Assembly (NCBI GenBank): GCA_023132155.1
Contig: JAGLYP010000008.1
Span: 4,846 to 68,845, forward strand
Reading direction: 5' to 3'
From: Candidatus Parcubacteria bacterium
Lineage (GTDB): Bacteria > Patescibacteriota > Patescibacteriia > Patescibacteriales > UBA12075
Length of the DNA: 64,000 nt
Below are positions 7,368 to 40,775 of the stretch, one piece after another. The number at the start of each line of letters is the position of its first letter. Within the stretch, counting starts at the first letter, position 1. Both the position numbers and the translations under genes were made by a program. The notes beneath the pieces were generated by a model. The model ran no database searches, had not been told where the DNA came from, and saw nothing but the letters and a program-made list of their open reading frames with translations.

Positions 7368-8486
7368 CTACGAAAAGAATAAAAAATAAAAAACCGTAAG
7401 CATAAAAAACATTATCACAAAAACAATAATCAATATCACTCCCAAATGCAAAGCAGGAAAGGTCCCTTGCGCGCGATCTTGTTGAGTATAGCCGGCTTGA
7501 TTAATTCCCGCTCTTTGCATTGCCTTTTTAACCGCCTTATTTTTATATAATTTTATTAATAAAATAAATATTCCGCTAATAAATAATAAAGTTAAAAACA
7601 CCGGAATAATTATTCGCCAAGGAATAATCCAAAAGGTTTTAACTGCCACTAAACTGCTCTTGCCTTGTCCGCCTTTATCCGCGGATACGCCATAAGTAAT
7701 GCCGAGCGTGGCTGTATATTTTCCAAAAGCTCCGGTTCCCTCCCATGTATTTTCATTAAAGCGGCGAATTGAACGCGGTAAAATATTACCGCCCTTTTCA
7801 TTGACTTTCAAAACCCGCACCTCCTTGCCAAACATATTTTTAATTGATATGGCGCCATGCGGCTTAATATGGACATTGCCGGCATTTTCAATACGAATTA
7901 AAAAATCAACCAAAAAAGGCGTACTGTAAAAATCCTTATCAGTATTAAACTCTCTAATATGCGCATCCTCCAAAACATCGCCTTTAACTCTAAGCAAAAG
8001 CAAAGACGCGGTTTGCTGGGCAATTGCCATACCCGCGCCCTTTTCCTCGTTTTGCTGCTGGATACGCGGCGGTTCAGTGCCCAAAATTATCGCGCCGAAA
8101 TATCCGCCCGGTCCGATGTCTTCCGGAACATTAACCGTAAACGGAACCGCTTCTTCCTGTCCGGGCGCCAGCTCAATTCCCTCGCGACTGACATCAATCC
8201 ATGATGCTAAATAATAGCCCTCTTCTGTTCCGGGGATAACAAGTTTTGCCATTCCGCTTTCGCCCTCAGACTTAAAATCGCGTAAGTAAACATAAAAAGT
8301 TCTTTTCTCATTAGCTTCGTTGGTAACTTTAATTTGAGATTTAAAAATTTCGCCAGGCTCAACCATTTCTTCAATTTTAACCGGACTGATTTTAATGCCC
8401 GTGGATGATTGGGCTTGCGCGATATTCGCAACAACGAAAATAAATAAAAATATTACTAAAAAAAATATCAGTTTTCTGTATTTCAT
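7368..8486 (-). CDS. Surface protein paralog 3 (signal peptide, beta-rich modules, TM segments at C-terminus)
   Basis: 372 aa with signal peptide MKYRKLIFFLVIFLFIFVVANIAQA. It shares the same conserved blocks as 5162..6295. Confidence 0.6.
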   Translation of the reverse strand: MKYRKLIFFLVIFLFIFVVANIAQAQSSTGIKISPVKIEEMVEPGEIFKSQIKVTNEANEKRTFYVYLRDFKSEGESGMAKLVIPGTEEGYYLASWIDVSREGIELAPGQEEAVPFTVNVPEDIGPGGYFGAIILGTEPPRIQQQNEEKGAGMAIAQQTASLLLLRVKGDVLEDAHIREFNTDKDFYSTPFLVDFLIRIENAGNVHIKPHGAISIKNMFGKEVRVLKVNEKGGNILPRSIRRFNENTWEGTGAFGKYTATLGITYGVSADKGGQGKSSLVAVKTFWIIPWRIIIPVFLTLLFISGIFILLIKLYKNKAVKKAMQRAGINQAGYTQQDRAQGTFPALHLGVILIIVFVIMFFMLTVFYFLFFS

Positions 8487-28400: not shown

Positions 28401-30702
28401 CAGTGTCTCCATTACACATATCGTTTCTAACCACAAGACCGTCATCTGTGCTCATCTCTGTTACAATGCCATTAGGCGATTCAATCGTCATATATAAATC
28501 CGCGTCGCAAATTGTACGCCCGTAATTATCCAAAACCGCCATCTGTAAATAAGCGCTTTCATCATCAACCGTATAAACAGACTTATTAGCATTAATCGCT
28601 AAAACGCCCCAGCTAAAATCCTGCTTAATCTCAATTATCTCTAACTCATCTCCGGAGCTATCTTCAATAATAAATTTTATTGAATATTTCCCTGGCCTTA
28701 ATTCGCGATTATACTCCGGCAATTTAATCGTAAACTCGCCATCTTCCTCAAAAATCATAGTCAAAGGCAAATCAATTTTTTCTCCAAAATTATTCAAAAG
28801 TTCCGCCCTGATATTTATATCCTGCCAAAAGCTTGCTAAGCCGAGAAATTCACTTAAAGACTCAAAAATATTTAATTTTTTCCGATTAAAACGAAACTTT
28901 AATTCGCCTGTTTCATTCACTTTAAAATCAATCTGCCCGGATAATAATTCCAAAGCATCCTGCCATTTTTGTCTTTTTTTAATTTTAATCATTTTTTCAC
29001 TCGGTTCAAATTCCGCCTCCACCCAAACGCTGTCTAAATAAGCGCTAAACTCCATCTGATTATTACTATAAGCTTCAAATTTTATATTCAACCTTTCAAC
29101 ATCTTCCCAAGATTCAAGAAAAGGAGCGTCATAATTAAAATACCCGCCGTTTAAAGAATTTGACAGACGCTTTCCATTGAGAGTATCAAGTTTCTGCCAT
29201 AATTTTTTCTCATCATCCGCGGACTCCGACAAGGAATACCAAATTATTATTTTAGCGGCGCTTGCTTCAGTCGTTCGCGCGTTGGCGCTTGCCAAAGAAA
29301 ACCACTTTTCTATTTTCTGAAGCCTGCTTAACTCTTCCTTGCTTCTTTCGTCTTTAATATTAGTAATCTCTTTTTTTACCTCCTCTTCAATAATCATCTC
29401 ATCTAAAACCTCATCGCTATCCTCAACATCATCTTTAATAACCTCGGTTTTATCTTCAATATCATCATTATCCATAATTTCATTTTCTATTTCATCAAAA
29501 TACTCATTATCCTCACCATCCTCTAACACCTCAACATCAAACAATTCGCCGCTATCTTTGGAATCTTCTTCAATAAAATTCTTTTCAATAGAATTCTCTT
29601 CAATCTCAACTTCCAAATCTTCAAAAACATCTCCGTCAATCCTTGATTCTTGATTCTTGATTCTTGATTCCATGTCAACATCAACATTCATCGCAAAAGA
29701 AAATTTAATCTTGGCCTTTTTAAATTCACCCAAATCGAAAAGGCTTGTTAATTTATCGTTAATTTTTTCTTTTGCGTGAGCAATTAAAATTGTAAAAGAA
29801 CTTTTCATTTTTTTAAACCAAGATATTTCCTGTTCTTCATTCATGTCTTCCTCCTCGGTAATAACTTCAACTATTACTTCCTCAACAGATTCTTCAAATA
29901 CTTCAATAAAAGCTTCCATATCATCATCACTTTCAGGCTCAACAATTTTTACTTCTTCCTGTTCTCGCGCGCCGCTTTCATCATCTTGAATATCTTCAAT
30001 TGATTCGCTGATTTCCTCTTCTTTCGCGCCGCCTTGAATCCCTTCAATTAGCTCTTCTGTTTTATTTTCCGTAAAATTCTCCATATCCCGAACTTCATTA
30101 TTCTCTTCTTCTTGAATATTTTCCAATCCACGCAATCCAACATCATTGCTCTCGTCCGAATTTATATCTTTTCCCAAAATATCACTTGCTGTATTTTCTA
30201 TAATTTCCACTTCAGTGATTATATCCGATATATATTGATCATTTTCTTCTAAATATTGATTAATTTTCTCAGTATCAACCAGCCTTAAATCATCTTCCAA
30301 AAATCTAAAACCGCTTAAAACCAAGCCGGCATTTCCACCGGAATAAAAAGCGGAATTTGTATCTGAAAATTCAATTAAACCGGCAGATGGCGATAAATCA
30401 ACATCGCCAACAAGTTTTTCAGTATTCCACCAACCACTTTGAAAACTCTCGTCAGGATTATCTATTTTAAAATTCGCGGGATAAAGCTTGATTACTTCGG
30501 GATTTCCGCCAATCGCCTTGATTGATGTGATAATAAAATCCAAAGGCAAAAAAACAAACAAAATTAATAAAATCGTTAAAATCCCGGAAACAAAACGCCA
30601 GCCGGAACTTTTATGCCTGTTCCGGCTGGTTATTTTGTTTTTAAAGCCAAAAAAAGAATTATTTTTCTTTCGGCTTATTTTTCTTTTTTGACAAGCAAAC
30701 AT
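25432..30702 (-). CDS. Large (1756 aa) surface protein, paralog of the N-terminal and FN3 parts of the 4353-aa protein; apparently lacks the C-terminal anchoring module
   Basis: N-terminal TM WRFVSGILTILLILFVFLPL, followed by a long E/D-rich low-complexity region. It shares blocks with the giant protein (DFSWGVLAINANKSVY, FDAPDESPEFYLLGP, RFLYIDQIRIRV) and has FN3-like modules. It ends ...HYRWRNDDGGE*, exactly where a new module begins in the paralog. Confidence 0.8.
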   Translation of the reverse strand: MFACQKRKISRKKNNSFFGFKNKITSRNRHKSSGWRFVSGILTILLILFVFLPLDFIITSIKAIGGNPEVIKLYPANFKIDNPDESFQSGWWNTEKLVGDVDLSPSAGLIEFSDTNSAFYSGGNAGLVLSGFRFLEDDLRLVDTEKINQYLEENDQYISDIITEVEIIENTASDILGKDINSDESNDVGLRGLENIQEEENNEVRDMENFTENKTEELIEGIQGGAKEEEISESIEDIQDDESGAREQEEVKIVEPESDDDMEAFIEVFEESVEEVIVEVITEEEDMNEEQEISWFKKMKSSFTILIAHAKEKINDKLTSLFDLGEFKKAKIKFSFAMNVDVDMESRIKNQESRIDGDVFEDLEVEIEENSIEKNFIEEDSKDSGELFDVEVLEDGEDNEYFDEIENEIMDNDDIEDKTEVIKDDVEDSDEVLDEMIIEEEVKKEITNIKDERSKEELSRLQKIEKWFSLASANARTTEASAAKIIIWYSLSESADDEKKLWQKLDTLNGKRLSNSLNGGYFNYDAPFLESWEDVERLNIKFEAYSNNQMEFSAYLDSVWVEAEFEPSEKMIKIKKRQKWQDALELLSGQIDFKVNETGELKFRFNRKKLNIFESLSEFLGLASFWQDINIRAELLNNFGEKIDLPLTMIFEEDGEFTIKLPEYNRELRPGKYSIKFIIEDSSGDELEIIEIKQDFSWGVLAINANKSVYTVDDESAYLQMAVLDNYGRTICDADLYMTIESPNGIVTEMSTDDGLVVRNDMCNGDTVISLPDYYAHYMLYSAGEYKINLSAATGNGFYSIQDRFEVREYAPFDIERAGPTRIYPKAEYDMVISVKANEDFSGDIVEYVPEGFEITNYKLQITNNKNKELELGNYDLEISNDTNKKNLKFKDVVLNQGDIFEFNYTFDAPDESPEFYLLGPAELIGFGTGTPFAEARSWQIASDAPVISTSTNGVNVNWTNPGNAWDNGTDTYASRDIPKKTSGGEPANYIQSSVNSATDLGGVINSVEIGIEAYVENTTVSAYLVAYFDGTTAGTIHSIAGATLGTASSDITNYVTITTEGPGSGNWTWDDIMNLDIRVYGGNSSNSANRFLYIDQIRIRVDYTANTPPNATFLSAKQRVDDSGIVDISIQVSDANNDDSRARLDYVLGADCDFNSPLDPTLDAAEANATSSILDVDIDNDWPYQVGTTTDLIRTTSANDVHFDWTSLSDISNADGTYCLRITANDFDNDDATPATTTVVIDNKAPTAPGVFSGASTTKSTAVLYFGATSTETHFDEYRVYYSTSTPVTENDYLHSSSTDENLTDIDFYGAATTTITDLLENTIYYFSLFAYDEYGHVSSSTPEDFTTNKTPLGVFSTSSPAAQRTDGSGIIDITIEVDDFNNDHSKAKIEYATGSDCIFSPAGDPALDETQSNINPTYGVPKIENDNEYQMGMGAEFWIQTPATNTIEFDWFGKTDLPIGDDTYCLRLTVNDGKDDQNISATATLTIDNVNPTAPGNLSEYDVGTSTIILNFGATTTETNFTYYKIYYKAGISGVSESDDPHVDDNLNDLHYDSAATTTIGGLISNTDYVINIWAYDDFGSKASATEVVIKTAATISNDSLTFVNPTASNWAVAGEDDEWTFRAVVSEENGWQTINNVVLRLANETDNATPFSDLEFTWNQTADVFTKTGADANSVVILSNTSTSTCADNTCTLDFNLIFNHNFFASGTNYSAELYSSNDGALTDFNTYVDFYQVKIVKVKQIHYRWRNDDGGE
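28111..28142. repeat. Heptanucleotide tandem repeat (ATTTGTA)x4.5 inside the 1756-aa gene
   Basis: atttgta atttgta atttgta atttgta attt, encoding EITNYKLQITNN. The unit length is not a multiple of 3. Confidence 0.85.
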
Positions 30703-30753
30703 GGGGATTATTGCTTTTCTTTAATATACCAAATTTGAGGCGAAGAAGAAGTC

Positions 30754-31294
30754 TTATAAATTATCATTCGCATGTCCCGCATTCGCAATTGGCGGGTTCG
30801 CAAAACGAATAACTTTAAAAAGACAAATTTTGTTCTATATTATTTAAATTTTGTAAATTTTTATTAGTATCAATATTTTTATCTAAAATTATATAAATTA
30901 TATAAAAACTCAATAAAGAAAAACTGATAACTATCACAAATAATAACGGCAGGGAATATTTAAAAGTCTTAAAAAATAACTTTATAATACCCATTTCCAT
31001 CACAAGCATCCGCCAACGATTTGCCAATTTTTCTCCAACACTTAGTTTGGCATCAGCTTTACCTTTATTTTTATAAGCCATAACCGCGTCCGCCGTAGTC
31101 ATCCAAGCAACAGTACAGCAAACCTGTTTTCCGGGAATTTTTCCGGTCCGAATTAACTGTCCAATATAATCAGCGGAATAATCGGAAATTTTAGCCGCGT
31201 CTTTTAAAGAAATTAAAGCTTTCTCGTTCATTTATGTTATTGCCTTCGGCAACCCGCCTCTGCGAATACGGGACATGCGAATGATAATTTATAA
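30754..31294. repeat. 541-bp segment bracketed by ~45-bp imperfect inverted repeats (26 bp perfect) that enclose the HTH gene; candidate invertible or mobile cassette
   Basis: The left arm ttataaattatcattcgcatgtcccgcattcgca..gcgggtt starts at 30754. The right arm aacccgc..tgcgaatacgggacatgcgaatgataatttataa ends at 31294. The outer 26 nt are exact reverse complements. Confidence 0.85.
30815..31231 (-). CDS. HTH (MerR/excisionase-like) protein with C-terminal transmembrane helix
   Basis: 138 aa. The N-terminus LISLKDAAKISDYSADYIGQLIRTGKIPGKQV is HTH-like. The C-terminal segment LPLLFVIVISFSLLSFYIIYIIL is a TM helix. Confidence 0.55.
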   Translation of the reverse strand: MNEKALISLKDAAKISDYSADYIGQLIRTGKIPGKQVCCTVAWMTTADAVMAYKNKGKADAKLSVGEKLANRWRMLVMEMGIIKLFFKTFKYSLPLLFVIVISFSLLSFYIIYIILDKNIDTNKNLQNLNNIEQNLSF

Positions 31295-31569
31295 TTTAGT
31301 TAATTTTAGCATTTCTCGACCCTCGAGATTGATATTTTCTGTCAAAATCTCGAGTAGCGAGATTTTTCTTTCTTGGCTATATTGTACCATTTTTAATGGT
31401 TAAGTTGCAAGGGCCTTAATTGATTTTATTAATTATTTTTGTTTTATTTTATTCTGCTAATATTAGTTATTTAAAATTTTGCAATATTTTATTATTATTT
31501 TTATTATTCTTAATTATTAATTTTTAATTATTAATTAAAAAATTGTGTGGATATCTTTTTGGGTAAAAT

Positions 31570-31690
31570 AGAAACTAAGTACCTGCGATTTTTTTATTTA
31601 ATATCCAAATAAATTTTAAATACAGCAATTAAATTGTTATATAAAATTAAACATTGTATAGCAACAAAAAATCGTAGATACTTAGTTTCT
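31570..31690. repeat. 121-bp element with 24-25-bp terminal inverted repeats related to the 8638..8723 palindrome
   Basis: The ends are agaaactaagtacctgcgattttt (31570-31593) and aaaaatcgtagatacttagtttct (31666-31690). These are the same termini as the 86-bp palindrome, but the AT-rich interior is not palindromic. Confidence 0.85.
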
Positions 31691-31970
31691 TCACATTTCT
31701 TGAATTTTAACTAAAATAATTGCTTTTATTGGACATTTTTGGTAATATTTAAATATACAAAATGTTTGGTTTAAATATTGACAATTTCCATTCATAAAAC
31801 ATTCTGATTGGAAATTTATATAATGATTTTAACTAATTTTAAATAAAATAATGGCAGGTTTGTATATTACTTGTTAGCTGAAATATTTCTTTTCTTTTCT
31901 GGGCTATTGCCCAATTGTTTTAAAAAATTTTCAAATTATTTCTTTATTTCTGGAAAAAATAAAAACTTTC

Positions 31971-32714
31971 ATGACAAAAAAATTCTCGAATCAATACTGC
32001 ATATATTGTTTAAAATATTTTGACGACCTCACTAAAGACCATATTTTTCCAGAATCATGGTATCCAAATTCAACTCCAAATAATAAAGAAAAATGGGTAG
32101 CTCCGGCATGCTTTGATTGTAATAATAAACTAGGAAAAATTGAAGAAGAAACTTATAAAAAACTTGCTATTAGTGTAACGAAGAATGATATTGCCGCCTC
32201 GGGAGTATCGGAAAAAGCTTCCCGTTTGTATAATCCAAATACAGCCAAAGATAAAAAAAGCAAAACACGCAAGATATCAAATATTAAAAAAATTATTCCT
32301 GACGTATATCCAGCCGATAAAATCCCGATAAATGCATTTATGAAAAATTGCGGTCTGAAAGAAAATGAACTTAATCAAAAACTTGCTGTTAATATTTCCT
32401 TCGAATTATTAGACTCATTTGCAGAAAAAATAATACGAGGATTAGAATTTAAGTTTAGAGACAAATTAATAAATCAAGAACACAGAAAAATTGATATTAT
32501 TCATCCACCAATTGGAATAGATCAAATTGCTCCTAATGAAATCAAAGAATTAAACAATATATTAAATCAGGATGGAGCTAAAGCTGATTGCGGTCCTGGA
32601 TTTAAAATTCGATATGTAGTTGATATATATAACACTAGTTTATACCACATTATTATTTGGGGTAAAATAGAAATTTGGGGAAACGTTTATAATACAAGTC
32701 TAAGAACAAAATAA
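31971..32714 (+). CDS. HNH-endonuclease-like protein (cassette 1)
   Basis: 247 aa. CIYCLKYFDDLTKDHIFPESWYP...APACFDCNNKLGKIEE matches an HNH/Cys-pair signature. Confidence 0.55.
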   Translation: MTKKFSNQYCIYCLKYFDDLTKDHIFPESWYPNSTPNNKEKWVAPACFDCNNKLGKIEEETYKKLAISVTKNDIAASGVSEKASRLYNPNTAKDKKSKTRKISNIKKIIPDVYPADKIPINAFMKNCGLKENELNQKLAVNISFELLDSFAEKIIRGLEFKFRDKLINQEHRKIDIIHPPIGIDQIAPNEIKELNNILNQDGAKADCGPGFKIRYVVDIYNTSLYHIIIWGKIEIWGNVYNTSLRTK

Positions 32715-32780
32715 AGAAATAATTTGAAAATTTTTTAAAACAAATTTTCTTATCAGAAAACAAAAGAAAAGAAATACATC

Positions 32781-32881
32781 AGCTAACAACGCGATATCCG
32801 GTTACGGCTCTTCCGAGAGCCTACACCCAAATTTTCTTCCGCTTCGCTCCAAAAAACTTCGGATATCGGTAAACGTTAGCT
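32781..32881 (+). repeat. attC-like element 1 (101 bp)
   Basis: AGCTAAC-aacgc-GATATCCG...ggctcttccgagagcc...CGGATATC-ggtaaac-GTTAGCT. The outer and inner boxes are complementary, the spacers are unequal (5 vs 7 nt), and there is an internal hairpin. Confidence 0.65.
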
Positions 32882-32910
32882 AAAATAAATTTTTATCTTA
32901 TTGTTTTTAT

Positions 32911-33336
32911 ATGAGTTGGAACAAAATAATCAGTAATAAATCAATGGAAATCGTCTTTAATTTTGAAAAATCGAATGGCAGATTTCCAGAGGAGGTTCAT
33001 ACAACCGGTGTGGGTTATGATATTCTTTCTAAAAACCAAGGCGAAGAAAGACATATAGAAGTAAAGGCAACAAGTGAGCTATGGTCCACTTACACATGGC
33101 TTCCTCTTTATAAAAACGAAGTCCAAGCACTAAAAAATTTTCCGGATAAATTTTATTTATATATCGTAAAATTTGACCTAGATAGAAATAATAGAAATGA
33201 AGATTCATTGAACTCAGCGGATTATGAACTTTTTATTATTAACGGTCAAAATTTATTAAATAAATTTAAAATTACCCAGGAAACTTATAGCTTGTCTCCT
33301 ATTAGCAGAAAAAAACTTACTGATTACAAACAATAA
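32911..33336 (+). CDS. PD-(D/E)xK nuclease-fold protein, DUF3883-like (cassette 2)
   Basis: 141 aa. The GVGYDILSKNQGEERHIEVKATS pattern (D...E-x-K) resembles the restriction-endonuclease-like DUF3883 core. Confidence 0.45.
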   Translation: MSWNKIISNKSMEIVFNFEKSNGRFPEEVHTTGVGYDILSKNQGEERHIEVKATSELWSTYTWLPLYKNEVQALKNFPDKFYLYIVKFDLDRNNRNEDSLNSADYELFIINGQNLLNKFKITQETYSLSPISRKKLTDYKQ

Positions 33337-33352
33337 GATAAAAATTGACATC

Positions 33353-33727
33353 AGCTAACACGGCGTATCCGACTACGCTTTAAAAAATTTAGTTAATTTT
33401 ATTTATTAATAAACAATCGTATGGAGGACTCAACACAAAATCTAAGTAAAAAAGAGAAAACTAAATACAACATAGGGCAAATTATAAAAATGATCGCCGG
33501 AGTATTTCTAATTTTATTTACATTAGCAAATAACGGTTTAGTTTCCTCTTTTAGTGCAGAGGCAATCGGGTATAATTTCTGGACTTTATTATTAATTGCT
33601 TTTGGAATATGGTTAATTTATAGCGGAATTAAAAAGTGGAAAAAGTAAAATTAACCAAATTTTTAGCTCCGTCCTAATTTTTGCTTCCGTTGGTCGCAAA
33701 AACTACAGATACTCCGATACGTTGTAC
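33353..33727 (+). repeat. attC-like element 2, split: left half (33353-33380) and right half (33655-33727) separated by a 75-codon ORF
   Basis: The left half AGCTAACacgGCGTATCCGactacgc matches the left halves of the other elements. The right half ccaaattttt..cttccgttggtcgcaaaaactacagatactCCGATACGTTGTAC matches their right halves. Confidence 0.5.
33421..33648 (+). CDS. Small two-TM membrane protein (cassette 3, nested in attC-like element 2)
   Basis: 75 aa with hydrophobic segments IIKMIAGVFLILFTLA and FWTLLLIAFGIWLIYSGI. It is bracketed by the IR aaaaatttagttaatttta (33383-33401) / taaaattaaccaaattttt (33646-33664). Confidence 0.45.
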   Translation: MEDSTQNLSKKEKTKYNIGQIIKMIAGVFLILFTLANNGLVSSFSAEAIGYNFWTLLLIAFGIWLIYSGIKKWKK

Positions 33728-33822
33728 GAAATAATTTTTTTATCTTAGTGGAGGTTTCAATACTTAGTGATTTTAACACGGCGAAAATTTGATTTTTTTA
33801 TTTATTTAAAAAGGGAAATAAG

Positions 33823-34290
33823 GTGTTTTCTCCGCTGTCGCTGCGAAAACGATTTATTAGTAATTTTATGGACAAATCAGAGAATAAAATAAATAAGACA
33901 ATTCAAATTATTTTTCTAATATTTTTCTTTGTTATTATTTGTTTTGGTGTTCAAAAAGCATATTCATCGGGGATAATATATTATTTAATTCTATTTGCTG
34001 TGTTAACATTAATTCCTGTAATTATAAAAGACTCTGATATTTTAAAATGCAGAATATCGCTTAGTAAATATATAAATTTTTTCATGGAAAAAAGAGAAAA
34101 CATGAAAAAAATAATAAAATCAAATAGATCCGATGATGATAAAATTAAAGAGGGTCAAAAATTGATCGATGAAGCCTTTAAATTAGGATATGAAGTAGGT
34201 GGAGGAAGGATTGTAAACAATATTCAGAATGTTAAATTTACGAAAAATAAAGATGGCGAAACCACAGATGTACAATTTGATGAAAATTAA
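33823..34290 (+). CDS. Membrane protein, unknown function (cassette 4, first ORF)
   Basis: 155 aa with a GTG start (an alternative ATG lies at 33868). Two hydrophobic helices (IQIIFLIFFFVIICFGV, YYLILFAVLTLIPVII) are followed by a charged C-terminal half. Confidence 0.4.
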   Translation: MFSPLSLRKRFISNFMDKSENKINKTIQIIFLIFFFVIICFGVQKAYSSGIIYYLILFAVLTLIPVIIKDSDILKCRISLSKYINFFMEKRENMKKIIKSNRSDDDKIKEGQKLIDEAFKLGYEVGGGRIVNNIQNVKFTKNKDGETTDVQFDEN

Positions 34291-34354
34291 TATTCTTTAC
34301 TCAACAATTTTTTGAAAATTTGATTTTACAATAAAAAAATAATTAACAAAATTT

Positions 34355-35194
34355 ATGAAAAGACAATTTAAAATTTTTTTAATTATGGCGATTTTTGCTG
34401 TTATTATTATATTCTTTGCATATCAAATGACCCAAAAACAATCCTCAAAATATTCAAACGAAAAAAATTATTCTGATCAGATAAATAAAGGAAGAGATTT
34501 GCCTTTACAATATTCCGACCCTCCGCCGTTAAATACGAAAAAACAATTTATACCAATCGCCCAAGATATTATCGGTACTTGGTACATTGTATCATCAAAT
34601 CCAAAATATAAAAATAAAATTATCACTGATTACACTAAATTTACATTTTACTTAAACGGCAAATTAGACAGAAATCAATTTACATCTGATAAATACAAAA
34701 TAGATGCAGGGAAATACGCATTTTTAGAAGATGATAAAACCTTTCCTATTACATTTGGTACTGATGATATAAAAAAATCTAATCTCTTTTGGAAACTTGA
34801 TGAGGAAGGATTGGCACAGTCATATTACAAAAGTAAGAAAGATTCGGTATATATTAAAGAAGGATCAAAAGAATGGGATAAACGAGAAAAAATTACTATC
34901 ACAACAGAGCTACCTATATCTTTTATTAATCCTAATGATTTGCAGATTGGGAAAACATATGAATTATCTAAAAAAACACCACTTATGCCGGAGGTAAATC
35001 CAGTTGATTCTATTGCAGCCCTTGGCGATATGAGAGAACTTAGTGCTGGTAGTGCAATTAAAATTATTTCCATCGCTCAAAAAAATAACACCCCATGGTA
35101 TAATGTTGGCTTTATTAATTATTCAACTGGGAATCTTGATTATGGCTGGATAAATAGCATTGCTTTATATGGGCAGTCTTTAAAAGAAAAATAA
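34355..35194 (+). CDS. Secreted/anchored protein with possible C-terminal SH3b-like domain (cassette 4, second ORF)
   Basis: 279 aa with N-terminal TM FKIFLIMAIFAVIIIFFAY. The C-terminus AGSAIKIISIAQKNNTPWYNVGFINYSTGNLDYGWINSIAL resembles bacterial SH3 domains. Confidence 0.45.
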   Translation: MKRQFKIFLIMAIFAVIIIFFAYQMTQKQSSKYSNEKNYSDQINKGRDLPLQYSDPPPLNTKKQFIPIAQDIIGTWYIVSSNPKYKNKIITDYTKFTFYLNGKLDRNQFTSDKYKIDAGKYAFLEDDKTFPITFGTDDIKKSNLFWKLDEEGLAQSYYKSKKDSVYIKEGSKEWDKREKITITTELPISFINPNDLQIGKTYELSKKTPLMPEVNPVDSIAALGDMRELSAGSAIKIISIAQKNNTPWYNVGFINYSTGNLDYGWINSIALYGQSLKEK

Positions 35195-35339
35195 CCATTT
35201 ATTAAAATAATAAGGAGTTTTGGGCAAAGAGCATTCACCCCTTTAATTCCCCTCTTCCCTTTGCCCCAAAACGAAAAACAAAATTAAATTCTTTTTAAAA
35301 GTGATTTGCATTCGCAAATCAAAGAAAAATATATACATC

Positions 35340-35439
35340 AGCTAACAGCGTATATCGGGTTACGGCTCTTCCGAGAGCCTCCACCCAAATTTGTCTCCGC
35401 TACGCTACGACAAACTTCCGATATACGCATATGTTGTAT
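35340..35439 (+). repeat. attC-like element 3 (100 bp)
   Basis: AGCTAAC-agc-GTATATCGG-gttacggctcttccgagagcc...CCGATATAC-gcatat-GTTGTAT. Its central part is nearly identical to element 1, while the inner boxes differ yet stay complementary. Confidence 0.65.
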
Positions 35440-35460
35440 GCAATTTGATAAAAAAATTTT

Positions 35461-35820
35461 ATGACAATAGAAAAAATAAACCATAATGTTGAAAAACCTG
35501 AAAATACAAAAGAGCGTTTATTAAACGATTTCAAAATGTTTAGAAATGATTTCCTGGAGGGGTTTCCGGATGAAATACTTTTGCCTGATATGCCCAATTA
35601 TCACAGATATAAATGTCGTACTAATTTTTTCAACAATATCTCGATTCGCATTTTACGCATACAACACGAAGGTATTAAATTAAGCAATGAAGGTAAAATA
35701 AAATGTGATAAATTTATGGATTATTGTACGACATTAAAGGGTAAAACAGAACGCTACCAACAAGAAGACATTGATAAGGCCAATGAAATACTTGATGTTT
35801 TAATAAACGAATTGTCATAA
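35461..35820 (+). CDS. Hypothetical protein (cassette 5)
   Basis: 119 aa with no motif I recognise. The start and stop codons lie inside a 22-bp perfect IR (tttgataaaaaaattttatgac / gtcataaaatttttttatcaaa). Confidence 0.45.
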   Translation: MTIEKINHNVEKPENTKERLLNDFKMFRNDFLEGFPDEILLPDMPNYHRYKCRTNFFNNISIRILRIQHEGIKLSNEGKIKCDKFMDYCTTLKGKTERYQQEDIDKANEILDVLINELS

Positions 35821-35863
35821 AATTTTTTTATCAAACTCTGCGCCATCACTTGCCCTTCGGGGC

Positions 35864-36014
35864 ACACAACACGGTATATCTGGTTACAGAAAATTTCATT
35901 ATTAATTTAATAATGTACAAAATTTTCTTCCACCCAAATTTTTGCTTCTCTTTTCTTTATTAATTATAATAATGAAGAGAACCAAAAACTTCAGATGACA
36001 CCGAAACGTTATGT
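35864..36014 (+). repeat. attC-like element 4 (151 bp)
   Basis: ACACAAC-acg-GTATATCTG...CAGATGACAC-cgaaac-GTTATGT. The ACACAAC box is complementary to the GTTGTAT/GTTGTGT that opens this cassette at 35433. Confidence 0.6.
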
Positions 36015-36040
36015 GCTGTAGCGAATTCCTGAGCTATTGC

Positions 36041-36193
36041 ACATAACAACGCGATAAGCGGTTCAGGAATTTTCTTAAAATAATATATAATAATGAGAAA
36101 AAATTCCTTCTCCCAAATTTTTGCCTCTCTTTTCTTTATAATATATAATAAGGAAGAGAAACAAAAACTTCGCTTCATCGGTAAACGTTAGCT
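36041..36193 (+). repeat. attC-like element 5 (153 bp)
   Basis: ACATAAC-aac-GCGATAAGCG...CGCTTCATCG-gtaaac-GTTAGCT. It is preceded by a 40-bp ORF-less unit, GTTATGTGC..GCACATAAC (36008-36047). Confidence 0.6.
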
Positions 36194-36259
36194 GAAATAA
36201 CTAAAAACAAACTCTTTATTTATATTTTTTTTTCAAACCCCTTTTTAATTTTTTAATAC

Positions 36260-36937
36260 ATGAATATAAAACATACAAAATTAACTAATAAAATTCATTT
36301 GCTAACTTTTGAAACCCAGCAAGATATAACATCCACTTTTTTGCGTTTTCAGGAACACTATGAATCACCAAATTTTAGAGGGAAAATATTCTCTTTTGAT
36401 GAATTTAAGCAGTGGTATATTAAAACCTCACCAAATGGAAAGATATCCGGAAAGTTTACATATTATTCCGATTGGAACGGTTTTAATATTCCGTCGCATG
36501 TTTTAAAGCCTTTTTATGATGGTAAATTTAATCCGCTTTCCGAACAAGAAAGTAAATTGTTAGATATATTCAAGGATGAAGTGGGTGCATTTTATATTAT
36601 CGGTGTTCATAGTGGAACGAAGAAGATTGACCAGCTCTTGAATCATGAAATTGCCCATGGACTATTTTACACTAGTGATAACTATAAAGCTGATGTTTTG
36701 CGGATTCTCTCGCAGTTTGATGTCAGTGCTATAAAAGAGGAGCTGCGCTCAAAAGCAGGCTACCATGAGAAAGTGCTAAATGATGAAGTTCATGCATATA
36801 GCATTGATTCAGTGAGCAATTTAAAAACACCAATACCTGAAAGTTTATCCTCGAAATTAAAAAAATCATACGAAAAACATTTGAAAAAAAATATAAATAA
36901 ACAAACTCTTTATTTATATTTTACCAACCAAAATTGA
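36260..36937 (+). CDS. Hypothetical protein with HExxH motif (cassette 7)
   Basis: 225 aa. The NHEIAHGLFY motif and a later EVHAY suggest a possible metallopeptidase-like fold, but I recognise no family. Confidence 0.45.
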   Translation: MNIKHTKLTNKIHLLTFETQQDITSTFLRFQEHYESPNFRGKIFSFDEFKQWYIKTSPNGKISGKFTYYSDWNGFNIPSHVLKPFYDGKFNPLSEQESKLLDIFKDEVGAFYIIGVHSGTKKIDQLLNHEIAHGLFYTSDNYKADVLRILSQFDVSAIKEELRSKAGYHEKVLNDEVHAYSIDSVSNLKTPIPESLSSKLKKSYEKHLKKNINKQTLYLYFTNQN

Positions 36938-36985
36938 CTAAATATTTTTAATTGGATATAATTGGATATAGTTAATATATCCAAT

Positions 36986-37077
36986 CAAGTTATGCCCAAA
37001 GGGCACTAACAGTAAGCGAAAATATTCTCAGCCCGAGGCTGATCCGCCTCGGGAGGAAAATTCCTTGACTATAAATT
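36986..37077 (+). repeat. Dispersed repeat copy 1 (62-bp family, here with a 30-bp insertion)
   Basis: caaGTTATGCCCaaaGGGCACTAACagtaagcgaaaatattc[tcagcccgaggctgatccgcctcgggagga]aaattccttgactataaatt. It ends 1 nt before the fic ATG. Confidence 0.85.
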
Positions 37078-37078
37078 T

Positions 37079-38173
37079 ATGGCAAAATATATTAAAAAAA
37101 TAACAAAAAAACATACAGTCCCGGACAATTTTTCAAAACGAATTGAAAATATTCCCGCTAGTATTGTTTCTAAAATAGCAAAAATTGACGAATTAAAAGG
37201 GCAATGGATATCAGGGGCTCGTTTAAGTCCGCAAGTTTTAGGCAAACTTAAACGGTCGGTTTTGATTACTTCAACAGGCGCTTCTACCCGTATTGAAGGT
37301 GCTAGGCTGGCTGACGCTGACATTGAAAAATTGATGCGCGGATTAAATATTCAAAAATTCACTAACCGTGATAAGCAGGAAGTGAAAGGTTACTATGAAT
37401 TATTGGAAAATGTTTTTAATTCATGGAAAAATCTCAAATTCAACGAAAATATTATTAAACATTTTCACCAAGAATTACTAAAATATGTAGACAAAGACAA
37501 AAATCATCGTGGCGAATACAAAAAAGGAAAAAACAAAGTGCATATGATAGACGAAGCAGGACAATCAGTCGGTATTCTTTTTGACACCGCGCCTGCATAT
37601 CTTGCTCCTAGTCAAATGTGTGATTTAATGGAATGGACGCAAAAAACATTGGTAGAAAATAAGTATCATTCATTATTGGTGATTGGAAATTTTTTGGTTG
37701 AATTTTTAAAAATTCATCCTTTTTCTGACGGAAACGGAAGATTGTCCCGCGTGCTTACAAACTTGCTTTTACTCCAAAACGGGTATTTGTATATGCCTTA
37801 TGTTTCACATGAAAAATTAATTGAAGACAATAAGCCTGATTATTATATTGCCTTGCGGCGCAGCCAAAAAACAATGGGGTCGGAAAAAGATAATATTACA
37901 GATTGGCTTGATTTTTTCCTGGGTATTGTTTTAAAGCAATCACAAATGGCGGTAGAGCTTTTGTCCAAAGAAAATATAGAAAAAATACTGTCAAAAAAAC
38001 AGCTTGTTATTTGGCAATACATTGAAAAAGTCAAAGAAACAAGCACTGGTAATATTGTAAAAAATACAGGAGTGACGAGGCCAACTGTTAAGCAAGTATT
38101 GGAAGTATTGCTTAAACTTAAAAAAATTGAAAGAATCGGGCTTGGAAGAAGCACTAGATATAGAAAAATTTAA
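37079..38173 (+). CDS. Fic family protein (Fido domain with C-terminal winged-helix)
   Basis: 364 aa with the canonical Fic motif HPFSDGNGRLSR. The C-terminal TGNIVKNTGVTRPTVKQVLEVLLKLKKIERIG is wHTH-like. Confidence 0.85.
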   Translation: MAKYIKKITKKHTVPDNFSKRIENIPASIVSKIAKIDELKGQWISGARLSPQVLGKLKRSVLITSTGASTRIEGARLADADIEKLMRGLNIQKFTNRDKQEVKGYYELLENVFNSWKNLKFNENIIKHFHQELLKYVDKDKNHRGEYKKGKNKVHMIDEAGQSVGILFDTAPAYLAPSQMCDLMEWTQKTLVENKYHSLLVIGNFLVEFLKIHPFSDGNGRLSRVLTNLLLLQNGYLYMPYVSHEKLIEDNKPDYYIALRRSQKTMGSEKDNITDWLDFFLGIVLKQSQMAVELLSKENIEKILSKKQLVIWQYIEKVKETSTGNIVKNTGVTRPTVKQVLEVLLKLKKIERIGLGRSTRYRKI

Positions 38174-38235
38174 AAATAAAAAAATAATAATGAGTTTATT
38201 TTATTTTTATTTTAAATTTTTTTTATCAACAACAT

Positions 38236-38310
38236 ATGATAAAAGCAATAATATTTGATTGGGGAGGTGTATTAAGGGTATTTGAAAAATATGCGACTGC
38301 GCCTAGTTGA
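38236..38310 (+). pseudogene. Remnant of a HAD-superfamily hydrolase gene (first ~13 codons conserved, then premature stop)
   Basis: The translation MIKAIIFDWGGVLRVFEKYATAPS* carries HAD motif I (IIFDWGGVL) but stops after 24 codons. Confidence 0.45.
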
Positions 38311-38335
38311 TAAATAATTAAAAAACTAAATTCAT

Positions 38336-39082
38336 ATGCAAATTATCCCCATAAAAACAAGGATAATAAACCCGCCAAAAGACAATTTATATGATGTGAT
38401 AAACAATTTTTGCCCCGCTCTTAAAGAGGGCGATGTTTTTTTAGTTACCTCAAAAATTTTAGCCATTCATCAAGGACGCTGTATTTCCATGGATTCAGTT
38501 AAAGATAAAGACGCCTTGATAAAAAAAGAAGCGGATATTTTTATTTCCAGAAAAGAGTGTCCGGGAGAACATGTAATATTAACTTTAAAAGAAAACACTT
38601 TGATTCCTTCCGCCGGAATAGACGAGAGCAACGCGAACGGATATTACATTCTTTGGCCCGAAAATTCAAGAAAAGAAGCAAAAAAAATTTGTAAATATTT
38701 GAAAAAAAAATTCTCGTTGAAAAAACTGGCGGTTATAATAACAGATAGCCATTCTACCCCGCTGCGATACGGTACTATGGGGATTTCTATCGGGGCATAC
38801 GGACTTAATCCGCTAAAAGATTATTCAAAAAAAAGAGATATTTTTGGACGGGAAATAAAAATGACAAAAGCTAACATTGTGGATACTCTGGCCGTTACGG
38901 GGGTATCAGCGATGGGAGAAGGCGCCGAGCAAACCCCAATGGCTATAATACGAGACGCGCGCTTTGTGAAATTTACCAATCAAAAAAATTATAAGGAATT
39001 ATTAGTTCCAATAAAGGAAGATATTTATTATCCATTATTAAAAAACTTTTATAAAAAACAAGTTATGCCCAAAGGGCGCTAA
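38336..39082 (+). CDS. CofE-like (F420-0:gamma-glutamyl ligase family) protein
   Basis: 248 aa. GDVFLVTSKILAIHQGR and IPSAGIDESNANG resemble the CofE family core. The last 8 codons (KKQVMPKGR*) are supplied by repeat copy 2. Confidence 0.55.
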   Translation: MQIIPIKTRIINPPKDNLYDVINNFCPALKEGDVFLVTSKILAIHQGRCISMDSVKDKDALIKKEADIFISRKECPGEHVILTLKENTLIPSAGIDESNANGYYILWPENSRKEAKKICKYLKKKFSLKKLAVIITDSHSTPLRYGTMGISIGAYGLNPLKDYSKKRDIFGREIKMTKANIVDTLAVTGVSAMGEGAEQTPMAIIRDARFVKFTNQKNYKELLVPIKEDIYYPLLKNFYKKQVMPKGR

Positions 39083-39120
39083 CAGTAAGCGAAAATATTC
39101 AAATTCCTTGACTATAAATT
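39059..39120 (+). repeat. Dispersed repeat copy 2 (62 bp)
   Basis: caagttatgcccaaagggcgctaacagtaagcgaaaatattcaaattccttgactataaatt. Confidence 0.9.
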
Positions 39121-39126
39121 GAAAAC

Positions 39127-39618
39127 CTACATCCGTTCCAATATCTTTAATTCCGGTTCGTTTTCTTTTAAATCCCAAACAGCGAAAGTGGCTTTTTGAA
39201 AAACGCCACTCAAGGTTCCGGGGTTAACAAATGAATAACCGCTTTTCTTTTCTATCCAGGGTTTATGGGTATGGCCGTAAAAAACCATATCGCACTCGCC
39301 TTTTTTTAAAACATAATCCAATAAAAACGGCTCATGGCAAAGGCCGATTTTTTTTCCTTCCAATTCAAATCTCGCGACTCTGCCAAAATAAATTATATTT
39401 TTATATTTTTTAGGCTCTTTATCCTCAAATAATTCCATATTGCCGCGCACTAAATATATTTCTTTTTGAAAATTATTCGCTAAAAATTTTAATGTATCGG
39501 AATTCGTCACATCTCCGCAGCAAAAAATTTTTTCAATATCATTCTCCGCGCAATAAAAAAGACACTTTTTTAAATTAGGAATATTATCATGAATGTCGGA
39601 AATTATGGCGATTTTCAT
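39127..39618 (-). CDS. Metallophosphoesterase, YfcE/MJ0936 family
   Basis: 163 aa with motifs ISDIHDN, GDV, GNME and GHTH in the canonical order. Confidence 0.8.
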   Translation of the reverse strand: MKIAIISDIHDNIPNLKKCLFYCAENDIEKIFCCGDVTNSDTLKFLANNFQKEIYLVRGNMELFEDKEPKKYKNIIYFGRVARFELEGKKIGLCHEPFLLDYVLKKGECDMVFYGHTHKPWIEKKSGYSFVNPGTLSGVFQKATFAVWDLKENEPELKILERM

Positions 39619-40775
39619 ATAAGATTAAAATTTATAATTTCATAAATCATACCGGCGGCAAATAATCCCATCAATAAATAAACAAGCGCGTTTGACGGTT
39701 TATAGGTAAACATCGGCAATTTATTTTTTTTCTTTTTTATTTTCAAAAATACGATAAGCATAACAATCGCGCAAAAACCGCCTCCAACCGCGCCAACAAA
39801 ACTTATAACACTGATTAAATCGGTAACTCCGGCTAAATATAAAATATAAGGCACAAAAATCGCTAAAGCCCAAGAAAGCGTTTTATTAACTTTAAAATCC
39901 CACCAAAGAGTTTCCTTGATTGATTCCGCCACGCCGATTATTGAAGTCATTATGCTAAATAGGCCAAAAATCAACACAAAATTAATGATACCGTTGGCAA
40001 GAACCTGCTGAACGCCTACAAGCGCGTCAGGAGTGGTATCCGCTCCGGAAATGCCTACTATTACAAACACAAACAAAGTTAAAATCAATAAAGATAAAAC
40101 CATGCTTGTCCTAATCACGCTTTTAAATAAAACCGCGTCTTTTTTAATCAGCCGCCCCACTATCGGCAAAGAACCGTTTCCATCCAAAGACATTAACATT
40201 GCTCCAAAGGGAAGTAAAATATTTTTCCAATCAATTGCCAGATAATTTTTCGCCTCAATCGCGTCCCAGCCCTTATAAACCATTATGCCAATCACAAAAA
40301 AAAGCAGGGCTGACATATACAGCTCCACTTTTGAAATCGCTCTTATTCCCTTGAAAACTACAATCGCCCCCAAACCGACAATAATACTCGCGTACAAAAT
40401 TAAATTCTCTCCCAAAAACGGACTTAATAATTGCCTTAAAAAAATACTGGAAATAATAATATAAGCAAGCAACGCGCCGTAATTTCCAATCAACTTAGCG
40501 GCAAAAACCGCCCATTTTCCCTTAAGGCCCAAATATTTTTCAACATAACCGGGCAAACGATGGAAAGAACGATTGATTACGATCATATTGGCATAAATCA
40601 AATGCACTAAATATTGAGCCGGGCCCAAAACCACTAATAAAATTATAAACACCAGCCAACCTGCCCTAACTGTCAGATATGGCAAACCGAACATGCCGAC
40701 TCCGATAATATAACCAACCATTACCGCTATTGCCTGAAAATATCTTTTGTTTTTTTGATGCTTTTTTTTGAACAT
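39615..40775 (-). CDS. Polytopic transporter, amino-acid permease-like (APC / Trp-Tyr permease-like)
   Basis: 386 aa with ~11 predicted TM helices and N-terminal AVMVGYIIGVGMFGLPY. The 4-nt overlap with 39127..39618 suggests an operon. Confidence 0.5.
   Translation of the reverse strand: MFKKKHQKNKRYFQAIAVMVGYIIGVGMFGLPYLTVRAGWLVFIILLVVLGPAQYLVHLIYANMIVINRSFHRLPGYVEKYLGLKGKWAVFAAKLIGNYGALLAYIIISSIFLRQLLSPFLGENLILYASIIVGLGAIVVFKGIRAISKVELYMSALLFFVIGIMVYKGWDAIEAKNYLAIDWKNILLPFGAMLMSLDGNGSLPIVGRLIKKDAVLFKSVIRTSMVLSLLILTLFVFVIVGISGADTTPDALVGVQQVLANGIINFVLIFGLFSIMTSIIGVAESIKETLWWDFKVNKTLSWALAIFVPYILYLAGVTDLISVISFVGAVGGGFCAIVMLIVFLKIKKKKNKLPMFTYKPSNALVYLLMGLFAAGMIYEIINFNLI

Follow-up and report, generated by a model that had tools for sequence, protein, structure and literature searches.

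We examined a 64,000-nucleotide stretch of a Candidatus Parcubacteria chromosome (contig JAGLYP010000008.1; hereafter the window), in which co-oriented plus-strand open reading frames (ORFs) at 31.8–36.2 kb have a repeat of 100–150 nt between them. This region holds a cassette array that belongs to an integron-like system of this member of the Patescibacteria, or candidate phyla radiation (CPR). A sequence-only reading of the window had noticed that the two flanks of individual cassette ORFs are reverse complements of each other, and we find that the inverted repeats around cassettes 1, 2, 3 and 5 are real. Across related arrays such arms are anchored on the recombination box and covary between their two sides. 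On this comparative and modelled evidence we favour, with a probability of about 0.55, the interpretation that the arms extend the R-box helix of a single-stranded, folded recombination site that would be recombined by an Xer/IntI-like tyrosine recombinase.

Paired arms and folded sites in the window

Read along the plus strand, which carries all of the array features given below, the repeat runs in the order R'' (AGCTAAC, ACACAAC or ACATAAC), L'', GGTTACGG, hairpin 1, CCACCCAAATTT, hairpin 2, AAAACTTC, L' and R' (GTTAGCT, GTTGTAC, GTTGTAT or GTTATGT). As single-stranded DNA (ssDNA) it is predicted to form a three-way junction made up of the R/L-box stem and two variable hairpins, with fold z-scores between −2.7 and −7.3 for the sites of the window. 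The G+C content is ~29% in the array compared with 38–44% in its surroundings. A scan of positions 30500–40000 against Rfam 15 (E ≤ 1) returned a best E value of 0.049, and nothing came near any gathering score. The box comparisons show that the putative mobile unit begins with the TT of a crossover box (G|TTxxxx), ends with the G of the following one and comprises a 5' arm, the cargo, a 3' arm and the attC-like site. These are the boundaries of an integron cassette (TTRRRY to the G of the next core site), and the 5' end of each unit appears to belong with its own R''.

An inverted-repeat search recovers every arm pair that had been named for cassettes 1, 2, 3 and 5, within a few bases of the positions originally given. 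Smith–Waterman scores for the cognate flanks of these cassettes are 91, 45, 35 and 50, respectively, compared with means of 16–26 and maxima of 50, 28, 26 and 33 after dinucleotide-type, composition-preserving shuffling. Not one of the 300 shuffles per cassette reaches the observed score, which answers for all four cassettes the concern that the arms might match no better than expected of AT-rich sequence; non-cognate flank pairs within the window score at most 33. Folding the array as ssDNA, a check that the sequence-only reading had proposed, gives a minimum free energy (MFE) structure in which R''(n) pairs with R'(n−1) at 7/7 positions, arm pairs with arm for cassettes 1, 2 and 5, and the L boxes pair within each site.

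The array opens with an attI-like region upstream of the first crossover box (31826–31872); the segment 31826–31937 is 85% identical to positions 7594–7487 of a related locus, L037, where it lies beside the start of a recombinase gene. R' box 0 (GTTAGCT, 31873–31879) starts cassette 1 and pairs with the R'' box at 32781–32787 at 7/7 positions in the MFE fold. It is followed by the 5' arm, module A5 (31880–31949), which is made up of GAAAT, stem I, the mini-hairpin GGGCTATTGCCC and stem II and recurs throughout the family. The cargo, ORF1 (31971–32714, 247 amino acids), has an HNH endonuclease domain (Pfam PF14279, E = 1.7 × 10−6; PF01844). The 3' arm, module A3 (32709–32780), is an inverted A5 with a mini-hairpin of its own (TTTTCTTATCAGAAAA) and overlaps the stop codon (32712–32714). 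With their R boxes, the two arms span 31873–31949 and 32709–32787, or ~77–79 nt each. Perfect blocks of 14 and 31 bp had been reported for this cassette; the longest is in fact 35 bp (31915–31949 / 32709–32743), and the second block, which includes the R box, is 28 nt at 93%. Attachment site 1 (32781–32881) follows with R'' AGCTAAC, L'', GGTTACGG, hairpin 1, CCCAAATTT, hairpin 2, AAAACTTC, L' and R' GTTAGCT; it has the predicted three-way junction, and its L box and hairpin 1 covary.

In cassette 2, the 5' arm (32882–32909) ends 1 nt before the ATG of ORF2 (32911–33336, 141 amino acids), which has a NOV_C nuclease-like domain (PF13020, E = 4 × 10−16), and the 3' arm (33325–33352) takes in the final three codons and the stop. 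The repeat is 35 nt at 86% within 32875–32909 / 33325–33359, and its perfect block, given earlier as 18 bp, is the 19-bp AATTTTTATCTTATTGTTT (32888–32906 / 33328–33346).

What had been called cassette 3 is no ordinary cassette. ORF3 (33421–33648, 75 amino acids, probably a membrane protein, with only a weak DUF3784 match) and its arms (33383–33407 and 33640–33664) replace hairpin 1 of the second attC-like site, the 5' arm standing in for the ascending strand of that hairpin and the ORF lying in its loop. The arms match over 25 nt at 88% and form 19–20 arm-to-arm pairs in the MFE fold; the repeat described as 18 of 19 bp is thus present, with a longest perfect block of only 10 bp. Despite the insert, the 5' half of site 2 (R'', L'' and GACTACG, 33353–33378) still pairs with its 3' half (CCTAATTT, hairpin 2, AAAACTAC, L' and R' GTTGTAC at 33721–33727; 33665–33727), through 11–12 pairs. 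The same arrangement occurs in L137 (1602–2386), in which an attC-like site holds, exactly at the hairpin 1 base, a gene with perfect 31-nt arms. Cargo can therefore be carried on more branches of the junction than that of the R box. Four of five split sites flagged elsewhere (in L083, L150, L014 and L079) are explained by intermediate sites that had been missed and do not have a gene inside hairpin 1, which leaves L137 and ORF3 as the two cases that stand.

Arms do not surround each cassette ORF, as had been proposed: they are absent from the two-ORF cassette 4 (33722–35439 with its site) and from ORF7 (36260–36937). Cassette 4 proper (33722–35339; ORFs 33823/33868–34290 and 34355–35194) has no cognate arms. 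It carries the family-wide leader and trailer modules M2 (33784–33860), M3 (35198–35300) and M4 (35301–35339), and a homologous cassette with 73% identity is found in L024. Its site 4 (35340–35439, R' GTTGTAT at 35433–35439) is 82% identical to site 1. The cargo of cassette 5 is ORF5 (35461–35820, 119 amino acids, no known domain), identical to an NCBI hypothetical protein of Candidatus Parcubacteria bacterium (locus tag KAU09_01185). The claim of a 22-bp repeat holding the ATG on one side and the TAA on the other holds up, and the perfect block is somewhat longer, at 25 bp: the 5' arm (35444–35468) contains the ATG (35461) and the 3' arm (35811–35835) overlaps the TAA (35818–35820). A GC hairpin (TGCCC-TTCG-GGGCA, 35851–35864), which has counterparts of different sequence in the homologous cassettes of L041 and L042, is bulged between the 3' arm and R'' of site 5 (35864–36014). 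This site has long hairpins 1 and 2, R'' ACACAAC, R' GTTATGT and the lowest z-score (−7.3). Beyond it lies an ORF-less mini-cassette (36008–36047) that consists of GTTATGTGC, a 22-nt loop and GCACATAAC and has analogues in L122 and L129, and then site 6 (36041–36193), the last that can be recognized.

Arms and modules across the repeat family

Scanning for the exact pattern of the junction boxes located the repeat in 40 genome and ~105 metagenome stretches, some of them chance matches. Most carriers are Moran-, Falkow-, Parcu-, Magasanik- and Campbellbacteria, and a few contigs were binned as DPANN archaea or other taxa. Near-identical sites occur on contigs binned to several CPR classes and to archaea. 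Loci in a Pacearchaeota bin (L033), a Woesearchaeota bin (L030) and a Methanoregula bin (L016) have the same site type, recombinase and paired cassette ends; such archaeal-bin occurrences reflect either cross-domain transfer or misbinned CPR contigs. Scanning viral contigs with the site pattern gave 0 matches, so nothing points to carriage by phages. With profile searches, 166 R'' and 170 R' boxes were called, and no locus had boxes on both strands; sites are 80–155 nt long across loci and lie on a single strand within each.

Of the 46 cassettes delimited by R' and R'' calls, ~37 show an inverted repeat beginning at the R box. Over all 46, cognate flanks score higher than non-cognate ones (median 27 versus 5), and 26 beat every non-cognate partner. 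A wider search brought the number of distinct cassettes with arms to 56, ranging in length from 111 to 6897 nt; in 39 of these 56 the arms measure 70–79 nt. The arms begin exactly at the crossover box G|TT and follow one plan: the R box (7 bp) plus GA, a 2 × 2 internal loop, stem I (~15 bp), a mini-hairpin in each arm and stem II (~30 bp). The internal loop is near-invariant, with 5' GAAAT opposite 3' ACATC (5' AA opposite 3' CA). Since the mini-hairpins occupy the same position in both arms, a four-way junction is predicted between stem I and stem II.

The arms covary. In a gapless alignment of the R box and stem I from 41 distinct cassettes, 87.1% of cells are paired, compared with 67.5% in shuffled alignments and 38.3–52.1% when the partner is slid by 1–3 columns; the covariation score is 0.485, compared with 0.147 and 0.12–0.18, respectively. 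None of 500 shuffles reaches the observed value of either statistic, and 19 of the 24 pairs change on both sides. Stem sequences belong to several unrelated families between cassettes, yet they pair within each cassette. The mini-hairpin stems also covary (GGGC/GCCC, CGGC/GCCG, CCGC/GCGG and others), while their loops read TATC or TAAC on the top strand in both arms despite the inversion of the arms, which argues for a strand-specific, single-stranded function. Of the isolated transition mismatches, 14 would be G·T wobbles if the bottom strand folds and 4 if the top strand does (P = 0.03); the invariant A/C of the GAAAT/ACATC loop points the same way. This bias hints weakly at folding of the bottom strand.

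The position of the arms is set by the R box and not by the ORF, the start of which lies 25–257 nt from that box. The sole cassette with a reversed ORF (in L019) has intact arms that are among the best pairs, and arm-only cassettes without any ORF exist in the window (36008–36047), in L122 (42 nt) and in L129 (111 nt). At the other extreme, paired arms enclose multi-gene cassettes of 2–5 genes and 4–6.4 kb in L031, L011, L012/L052 and L153 (581 + 779 + 635 amino acids).

The arms had been described as private to each ORF, which is true only in part: the cassette 1 module recurs around unrelated cargo in at least 10 cassettes, and the arms of cassettes 2 and 5 are rarer. By their sequences, the arms fall into families that are common to unrelated cargos across many genomes. 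A5 follows an attI or R' box in at least 10 other loci at 75–90% identity, and A3 lies upstream of R'' in ~20. This A5/A3 family brackets 10 distinct cassettes with cargos of 0.57–6.4 kb (one to five genes) that share no similarity in BLASTP searches. Small differences are matched in both arms, as with TTTTAAAATT on both sides in L031 and ATTTC on both sides in the window. No full-length A5–A3 scaffold without an ORF was found in 154 loci.

Homologous cassettes answer the question, posed by the sequence-only reading, of whether arms covary between genomes. Homologues of ORF5 in L041 (85% identical) and L042 (81%) retain the arm TTTGATAAAAAA(A)TTTT, and the R boxes differ by two compensatory changes (GTTGTATGC/GCACACAAC in the window versus GTTGTACGA/TCGTACAAC in L042). 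Downstream of the L041 homologue lies a site homologous to window site 5, whereas the upstream site is not homologous. L042 has the inner arms of window cassette 5 with a different R box and site, so modules are exchanged at some level. Homologues outside cassettes, for example that of L047, have no repeat. L044 and L045 have neither an attC-like site nor an inverted counterpart of the leader on the 3' side, but they keep the 5' leader itself and the ATGACAAT/ATTGTCAT complementarity. We do not count ATGACAAT/ATTGTCAT as clean evidence of a conserved stem, because conservation of the protein ends (MTI... / ...LS*) explains part of it; the non-cassette homologue of L047, which begins MDEN, likewise ends in ...LS*. 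Only the non-coding part of the cassette 5 repeat is therefore clean. A homologue of ORF2 in L157 is 60% identical and has a near-identical 17–19-nt arm pair, with compensatory changes in the R box (GTTAGCT/AGCTAAC in the window versus GTTGGCC/GTCCAAC); operon-embedded homologues of ORF2 have no arms. Arms that are nearly identical around proteins of only 60% identity appear to be under constraint.

Leader and trailer modules also surround unrelated genes. M2 is present in more than 50 copies in the loci (for example, in L025, L031 and L153), and M2 and M3 flank unrelated genes. M2 contains a Shine–Dalgarno-like AGAGGGG, a GTG or ATG ~7 nt later and a conserved short reading frame, (V/M)FSPLRYENDLFIRGKRIQ*, which in the window is in frame with the ORF at 33823–34290. 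At the nucleotide level, M2 is similar to hairpin 2 and to the 3' half of an attC-like site. The reading frame could encode a leader peptide, could be a regulatory upstream ORF or could merely reflect conserved structure. The M3/M4 trailer (35198–35339), common to many cassettes at 70–93% identity, contains two hairpins, one long (GTTTTGGGCAAAG...CTTTGCCCCAAAAC) and the other GATTTGCATTCGCAAATC, as well as CCCCTCT, the complement of the leader AGAGGGG.

The recombinase and the reading of the arms

A tyrosine recombinase of 270–288 amino acids recurs in the family and is encoded divergently at the 5' side of the array in 11/11 loci that hold one. In L025 and L037, the first GTTAGCT lies ~75–80 nt from its start codon. 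Relatives thus have the recombinase-divergent-from-first-cassette (attI) junction of integrons, of which the window keeps only the attI-like remnant at 31826–31872. No recombinase was found in the 64-kb window with four family recombinases as tblastn queries (E < 1). Given that absence next to an attI-like junction, the array appears to have lost its integrase and to be like a CALIN, the cluster of attC sites lacking integrase reportedly named in the IntegronFinder work of Cury et al. 2016. Six sites at 32781–36193 agree with the CALIN definition, which asks for at least two attC sites spaced by less than 4 kb and for no integrase in the vicinity.

The closest solved structure to the recombinase is the Vibrio integron integrase VchIntIA (2A3V, 177 bits), ahead of XerA (153 bits). 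In the alignment to 2A3V, query residues 196–207 take the place of chain residues 186–239, so that ~42 amino acids are missing. The match to the integron integrase model TIGR02249 (228 bits, cut-off 265) falls into two stretches and below the cut-off, consistent with this gap. The XerA_Arch model NF040815 (cut-off 220) is passed by the L025 protein (236 bits), and those of L030 (197 bits) and L033 (207 bits) fall below it. The missing segment corresponds to the IntI-specific additional domain around patch III, which is described as a defining characteristic of IntIs and is also present in the IntIs of archaeal integrons (Ghaly et al. 2022, PMC9668308). The integrase with an IntI domain by which integrons are recognized is thus not found in this family. 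The sites themselves have the R''(RYYYAAC)–L''...L'–R'(GTTRRRY) layout and single-stranded fold of attC, with AGCTAAC and GTTAGCT each deviating at one position from the consensus, and their L-box helix and hairpin 1 covary.

Measured against sedentary chromosomal integrons and CALINs, the family therefore presents a mixture of shared and distinct features. Shared are the co-oriented cassettes, imperfect-palindrome sites with the R''–L''...L'–R' layout and xxxxAAC / GTTxxxx boxes, a crossover consistent with G|TT, homogeneity of sites within an array, a divergent tyrosine recombinase by an attI-like junction (in relatives), cassette-typical cargo such as nucleases and small membrane proteins, and the existence of arrays without an integrase, the window included. 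Classical integron cassettes have in common only the 3' attC site and six 5' bases (TTRRRY); here, terminal inverted repeats of ~75 nt prolong the R-box helix. Instead of the simple variable loop of a classical attC, the site is a three-way junction with junction boxes conserved across many lineages, and the recombinase lacks ~42 amino acids of the IntI-specific domain. Unlike typical integron cassettes, these may hold 3–5 genes (up to 6.4–6.9 kb), carry standard leader and trailer modules and, in places, have a gene inside a site hairpin. Two Xer systems offer further comparisons. The attP of phage CTX (Val et al. 2005) is said to be a single forked hairpin of ~150 nt that is recombined as folded ssDNA by XerCD and integrates at dif; a Xer-family recombinase acting on a duplex-like site formed by pairing of distant inverted segments of one strand would be similar, and the difference lies in an array with a stem around each cargo. 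The pdif modules of Acinetobacter plasmids (Blackwell and Hall) are reportedly bounded by 28-bp double-stranded XerC/XerD sites of alternating orientation. They, too, hold genes between inverted elements and implicate a Xer-type recombinase; the sites described here are 100–150-nt structured repeats in one orientation (80–155 nt, on one strand per locus, across the family) and the inverted elements are long, variable arms. A search limited to the open-access literature on extended stems and on integrons or attC sites in Patescibacteria, Parcubacteria, CPR bacteria and DPANN archaea yielded no description of this family or of cassette-spanning stems.

Of the explanations offered by the sequence-only reading, extension of the attC stem in a circularized cassette is the best supported: the arms are anchored at G|TT, the 5' TTxxxx covaries with the cassette's own R'' and not with the neighbour's, R''(n) pairs with R'(n−1) at 7/7 positions and arm-only mini-cassettes exist. 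We picture an attC-like site of ~100–150 nt that would fold as a three-way junction at the 3' end of the cassette. In a single-stranded or circularized cassette, the cassette's own 5' end would pair with its own R'' and the helix would continue outward, leaving the cargo as a terminal loop; ORF3 shows the same principle on another branch, lying in the loop of hairpin 1. The arms would then keep the R box in a duplex and juxtapose the cassette ends for an Xer/IntI-like recombinase, and the substrate would be a folded single strand, probably the bottom one by analogy with integrons. The conserved GAAAT/ACATC beside the R box is probably part of the R-side binding arm of the recombinase (TTxxxxGAAAT/ACATCxxxxAA), and the extended helix may compensate for the missing IntI domain, which reads extrahelical bases in classical integrons.

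Several points weigh against this picture. The window has no integrase, and because the recombinase of its relatives is without the ~42 amino acids of the IntI-specific domain, we have to assume that it acts on folded DNA. Arms are missing from about 20% of cassettes and so are not strictly required for cassette persistence. For arms as far as 6.9 kb apart to pair, a great length of DNA would have to be single-stranded. Their complementarity could partly reflect inverted duplication or gene conversion between arms and not selection, and the wobble bias is modest and could stem from strand-biased mutation. There are also features compatible with a role in RNA: ORFs that are nearly all co-oriented, arms that touch start and stop codons in short cassettes, and the complementarity of leader AGAGGGG and trailer CCCCTCT.

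These last features are the core of an explanation at the level of RNA, in which the 5' and 3' untranslated regions of a cassette pair in the array transcript and serve RNase III-type processing, protection of ends, or masking of the ribosome-binding region or start codon. The short frame conserved in M2 and several hairpins with UNCG-type loops on the sense strand fit it as well, and so does the precedent of rRNA operon processing stems and phage RNase III sites, in which flanks pair at long range in RNA and the unit becomes the loop of a helix. We nevertheless regard an RNA role as unlikely, and the occlusion of the start codon by 5'–3' pairing in mRNA, as raised by the sequence-only reading, as less favoured. 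The helix starts at the recombination box with no fixed distance to the ORF, is kept in ORF-less units and around cargos of 3–5 genes, and is among the best in the one cassette with a reversed ORF (L019). The tolerated transition mismatches are A·C on the sense strand and G·T on the antisense strand (14 versus 4), with the same A/C polarity in GAAAT/ACATC, and promoter- or terminator-like sites are not enriched in the array (36 promoter-like sites versus 35.2 expected). Somewhat more doubtful still is that the arms are a relic of cassette genesis, complementary by descent and gene conversion with little present function, because cargo was loaded into the apex of a palindromic 'empty cassette' or because a hairpin step made both ends. 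The A5/A3 family around 10 unrelated cargos, the standard M2/M3 modules, the ORF-less hairpin cassettes, the genes at the apex of hairpin 1 (ORF3 and L137) and the pairing in L042 of the cassette 5 inner arms with another R box and site would all follow from such an origin. It is harder to square with an architecture (arm length of ~75 nt, mini-hairpin position and internal loop) that is conserved across unrelated arm families, with 3–4 pair types per covarying column, with arms better conserved than the coding sequence, or with the lack of any full-length, ORF-less A5–A3 scaffold in 154 loci.

The remaining proposal of the sequence-only reading, that every ORF forms with its arms a transposon-like mini-element, with terminal inverted repeats (TIRs) at its ends, that inserted into a repeated target, is mostly contradicted, and we consider it improbable. 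As in TIR transposons and miniature inverted-repeat transposable elements, inverted and terminal repeats bound a short DNA unit; the genes of ORF3 and L137 lie inside otherwise intact repeats; and the modular exchange seen in L042, where the same inner arms meet a different outer site, remains in its favour. The arm families, however, are unrelated in sequence, with no common end for a transposase to bind beyond GAAAT/ACATC, and they covary as structure rather than as protein-binding sequence. The flanks are R boxes and not target-site duplications, none of the recurrent proteins of the loci was a transposase, and the repeats are all co-oriented within a locus. Arrays begin at an attI-like site by the recombinase with a 5' arm and no preceding repeat, and in L041 the ORF5 homologue has been inherited together with its downstream site, the upstream one being different. 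Chance complementarity in AT-rich intergenic DNA would have something to draw on in an array of ~29% G+C with many weak inverted repeats, but the shuffles, the excess of cognate over non-cognate pairing in the window and in 46–56 cassettes elsewhere, and the significant covariation reduce it to a negligible prospect.

Beyond the extension of the R-box helix, which remains our preferred reading, a broader scenario is conceivable, and we offer it tentatively. The family may be a distinct integron-like lineage across Patescibacteria and DPANN archaea whose recombinase never acquired, or lost, the IntI domain and relies on a larger folded substrate, namely the three-way junction plus a ~75-bp cassette-spanning helix with a four-way junction. 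Cargo may load at the hairpin apexes of pre-formed empty cassettes; this is suggested by the same scaffold of arms, leader and trailer around unrelated cargos of one to five genes, and by genes at the tip of hairpin 1. Shared scaffolds and cargo at hairpin apexes may hold information on the making of cassettes, and apex loading, if true, would provide a concrete route to the long-unsolved origin of integron cassettes. Integron biology has yet to settle where cassettes come from and what ensures that attC folds, and here cassettes carry a second long, covarying element that ties both ends together, alongside a recombinase whose closest counterparts are integron integrases but which is missing the domain that typifies them. 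Should recombination depend on the arms, there would be a second way to build structure-specific recombination, the evolution of IntI from Xer would gain a natural point of comparison, and the standardized scaffolds around unrelated cargo would form a test bed for models of how cassettes originate. The family also marks a system of gene exchange in CPR bacteria, a poorly understood group with tiny genomes, and for annotation, paired arms allow cassette boundaries to be called in these genomes.

Surroundings of the array

Directly upstream of the array lie two giant minus-strand ORFs (12143–25204, 4353 amino acids; 25432–30702, 1756 amino acids). Two inverted repeats, 31570–31594 / 31666–31690 (25 nt at 92%) and 31581–31604 / 31836–31859 (24 nt at 88%), sit in the very AT-rich non-coding DNA at 31.4–31.87 kb, the expected place of the integrase gene, 5' of the attI-like junction. 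The orientation of the array relative to replication, as judged from GC skew, is confounded by gene orientation and was not used.

On the downstream side, ORF7 (225 amino acids, no known domain) is flanked by a direct rather than an inverted repeat (36195–36228 / 36889–36922, 88% over 34 nt) and has no attC-like site downstream of it. A 45-nt direct repeat at 36983–37027 and 39056–39100 (96% identical) brackets a Fic/DOC gene (37079–38173) and an F420-ligase-like gene (38336–39082). It consists of an R'-like/R''-like hairpin (GTTATGCCC-AAA-GGGCACTAAC) and a truncated L''-like stretch, and its first copy holds an additional 30-nt hairpin insert. At 36934–36985, a near-consensus promoter (TTGACT-17-TATAAT) overlaps three TTGGATATA repeats, two direct and one inverted. 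The palindromic TTGGATATA motif (36949–36985) was initially read as a dif-like Xer site at the end of the array, and we have not used it as evidence. It is probably a promoter-operator, and less probably a Xer/dif-like site, given its overlap with the promoter and its recurrence upstream of genes in other loci; the promoter/TTGGATATA element of ~60 nt lies just downstream of the arrays in L008 (341–377), L071, L147, L041 and L035.

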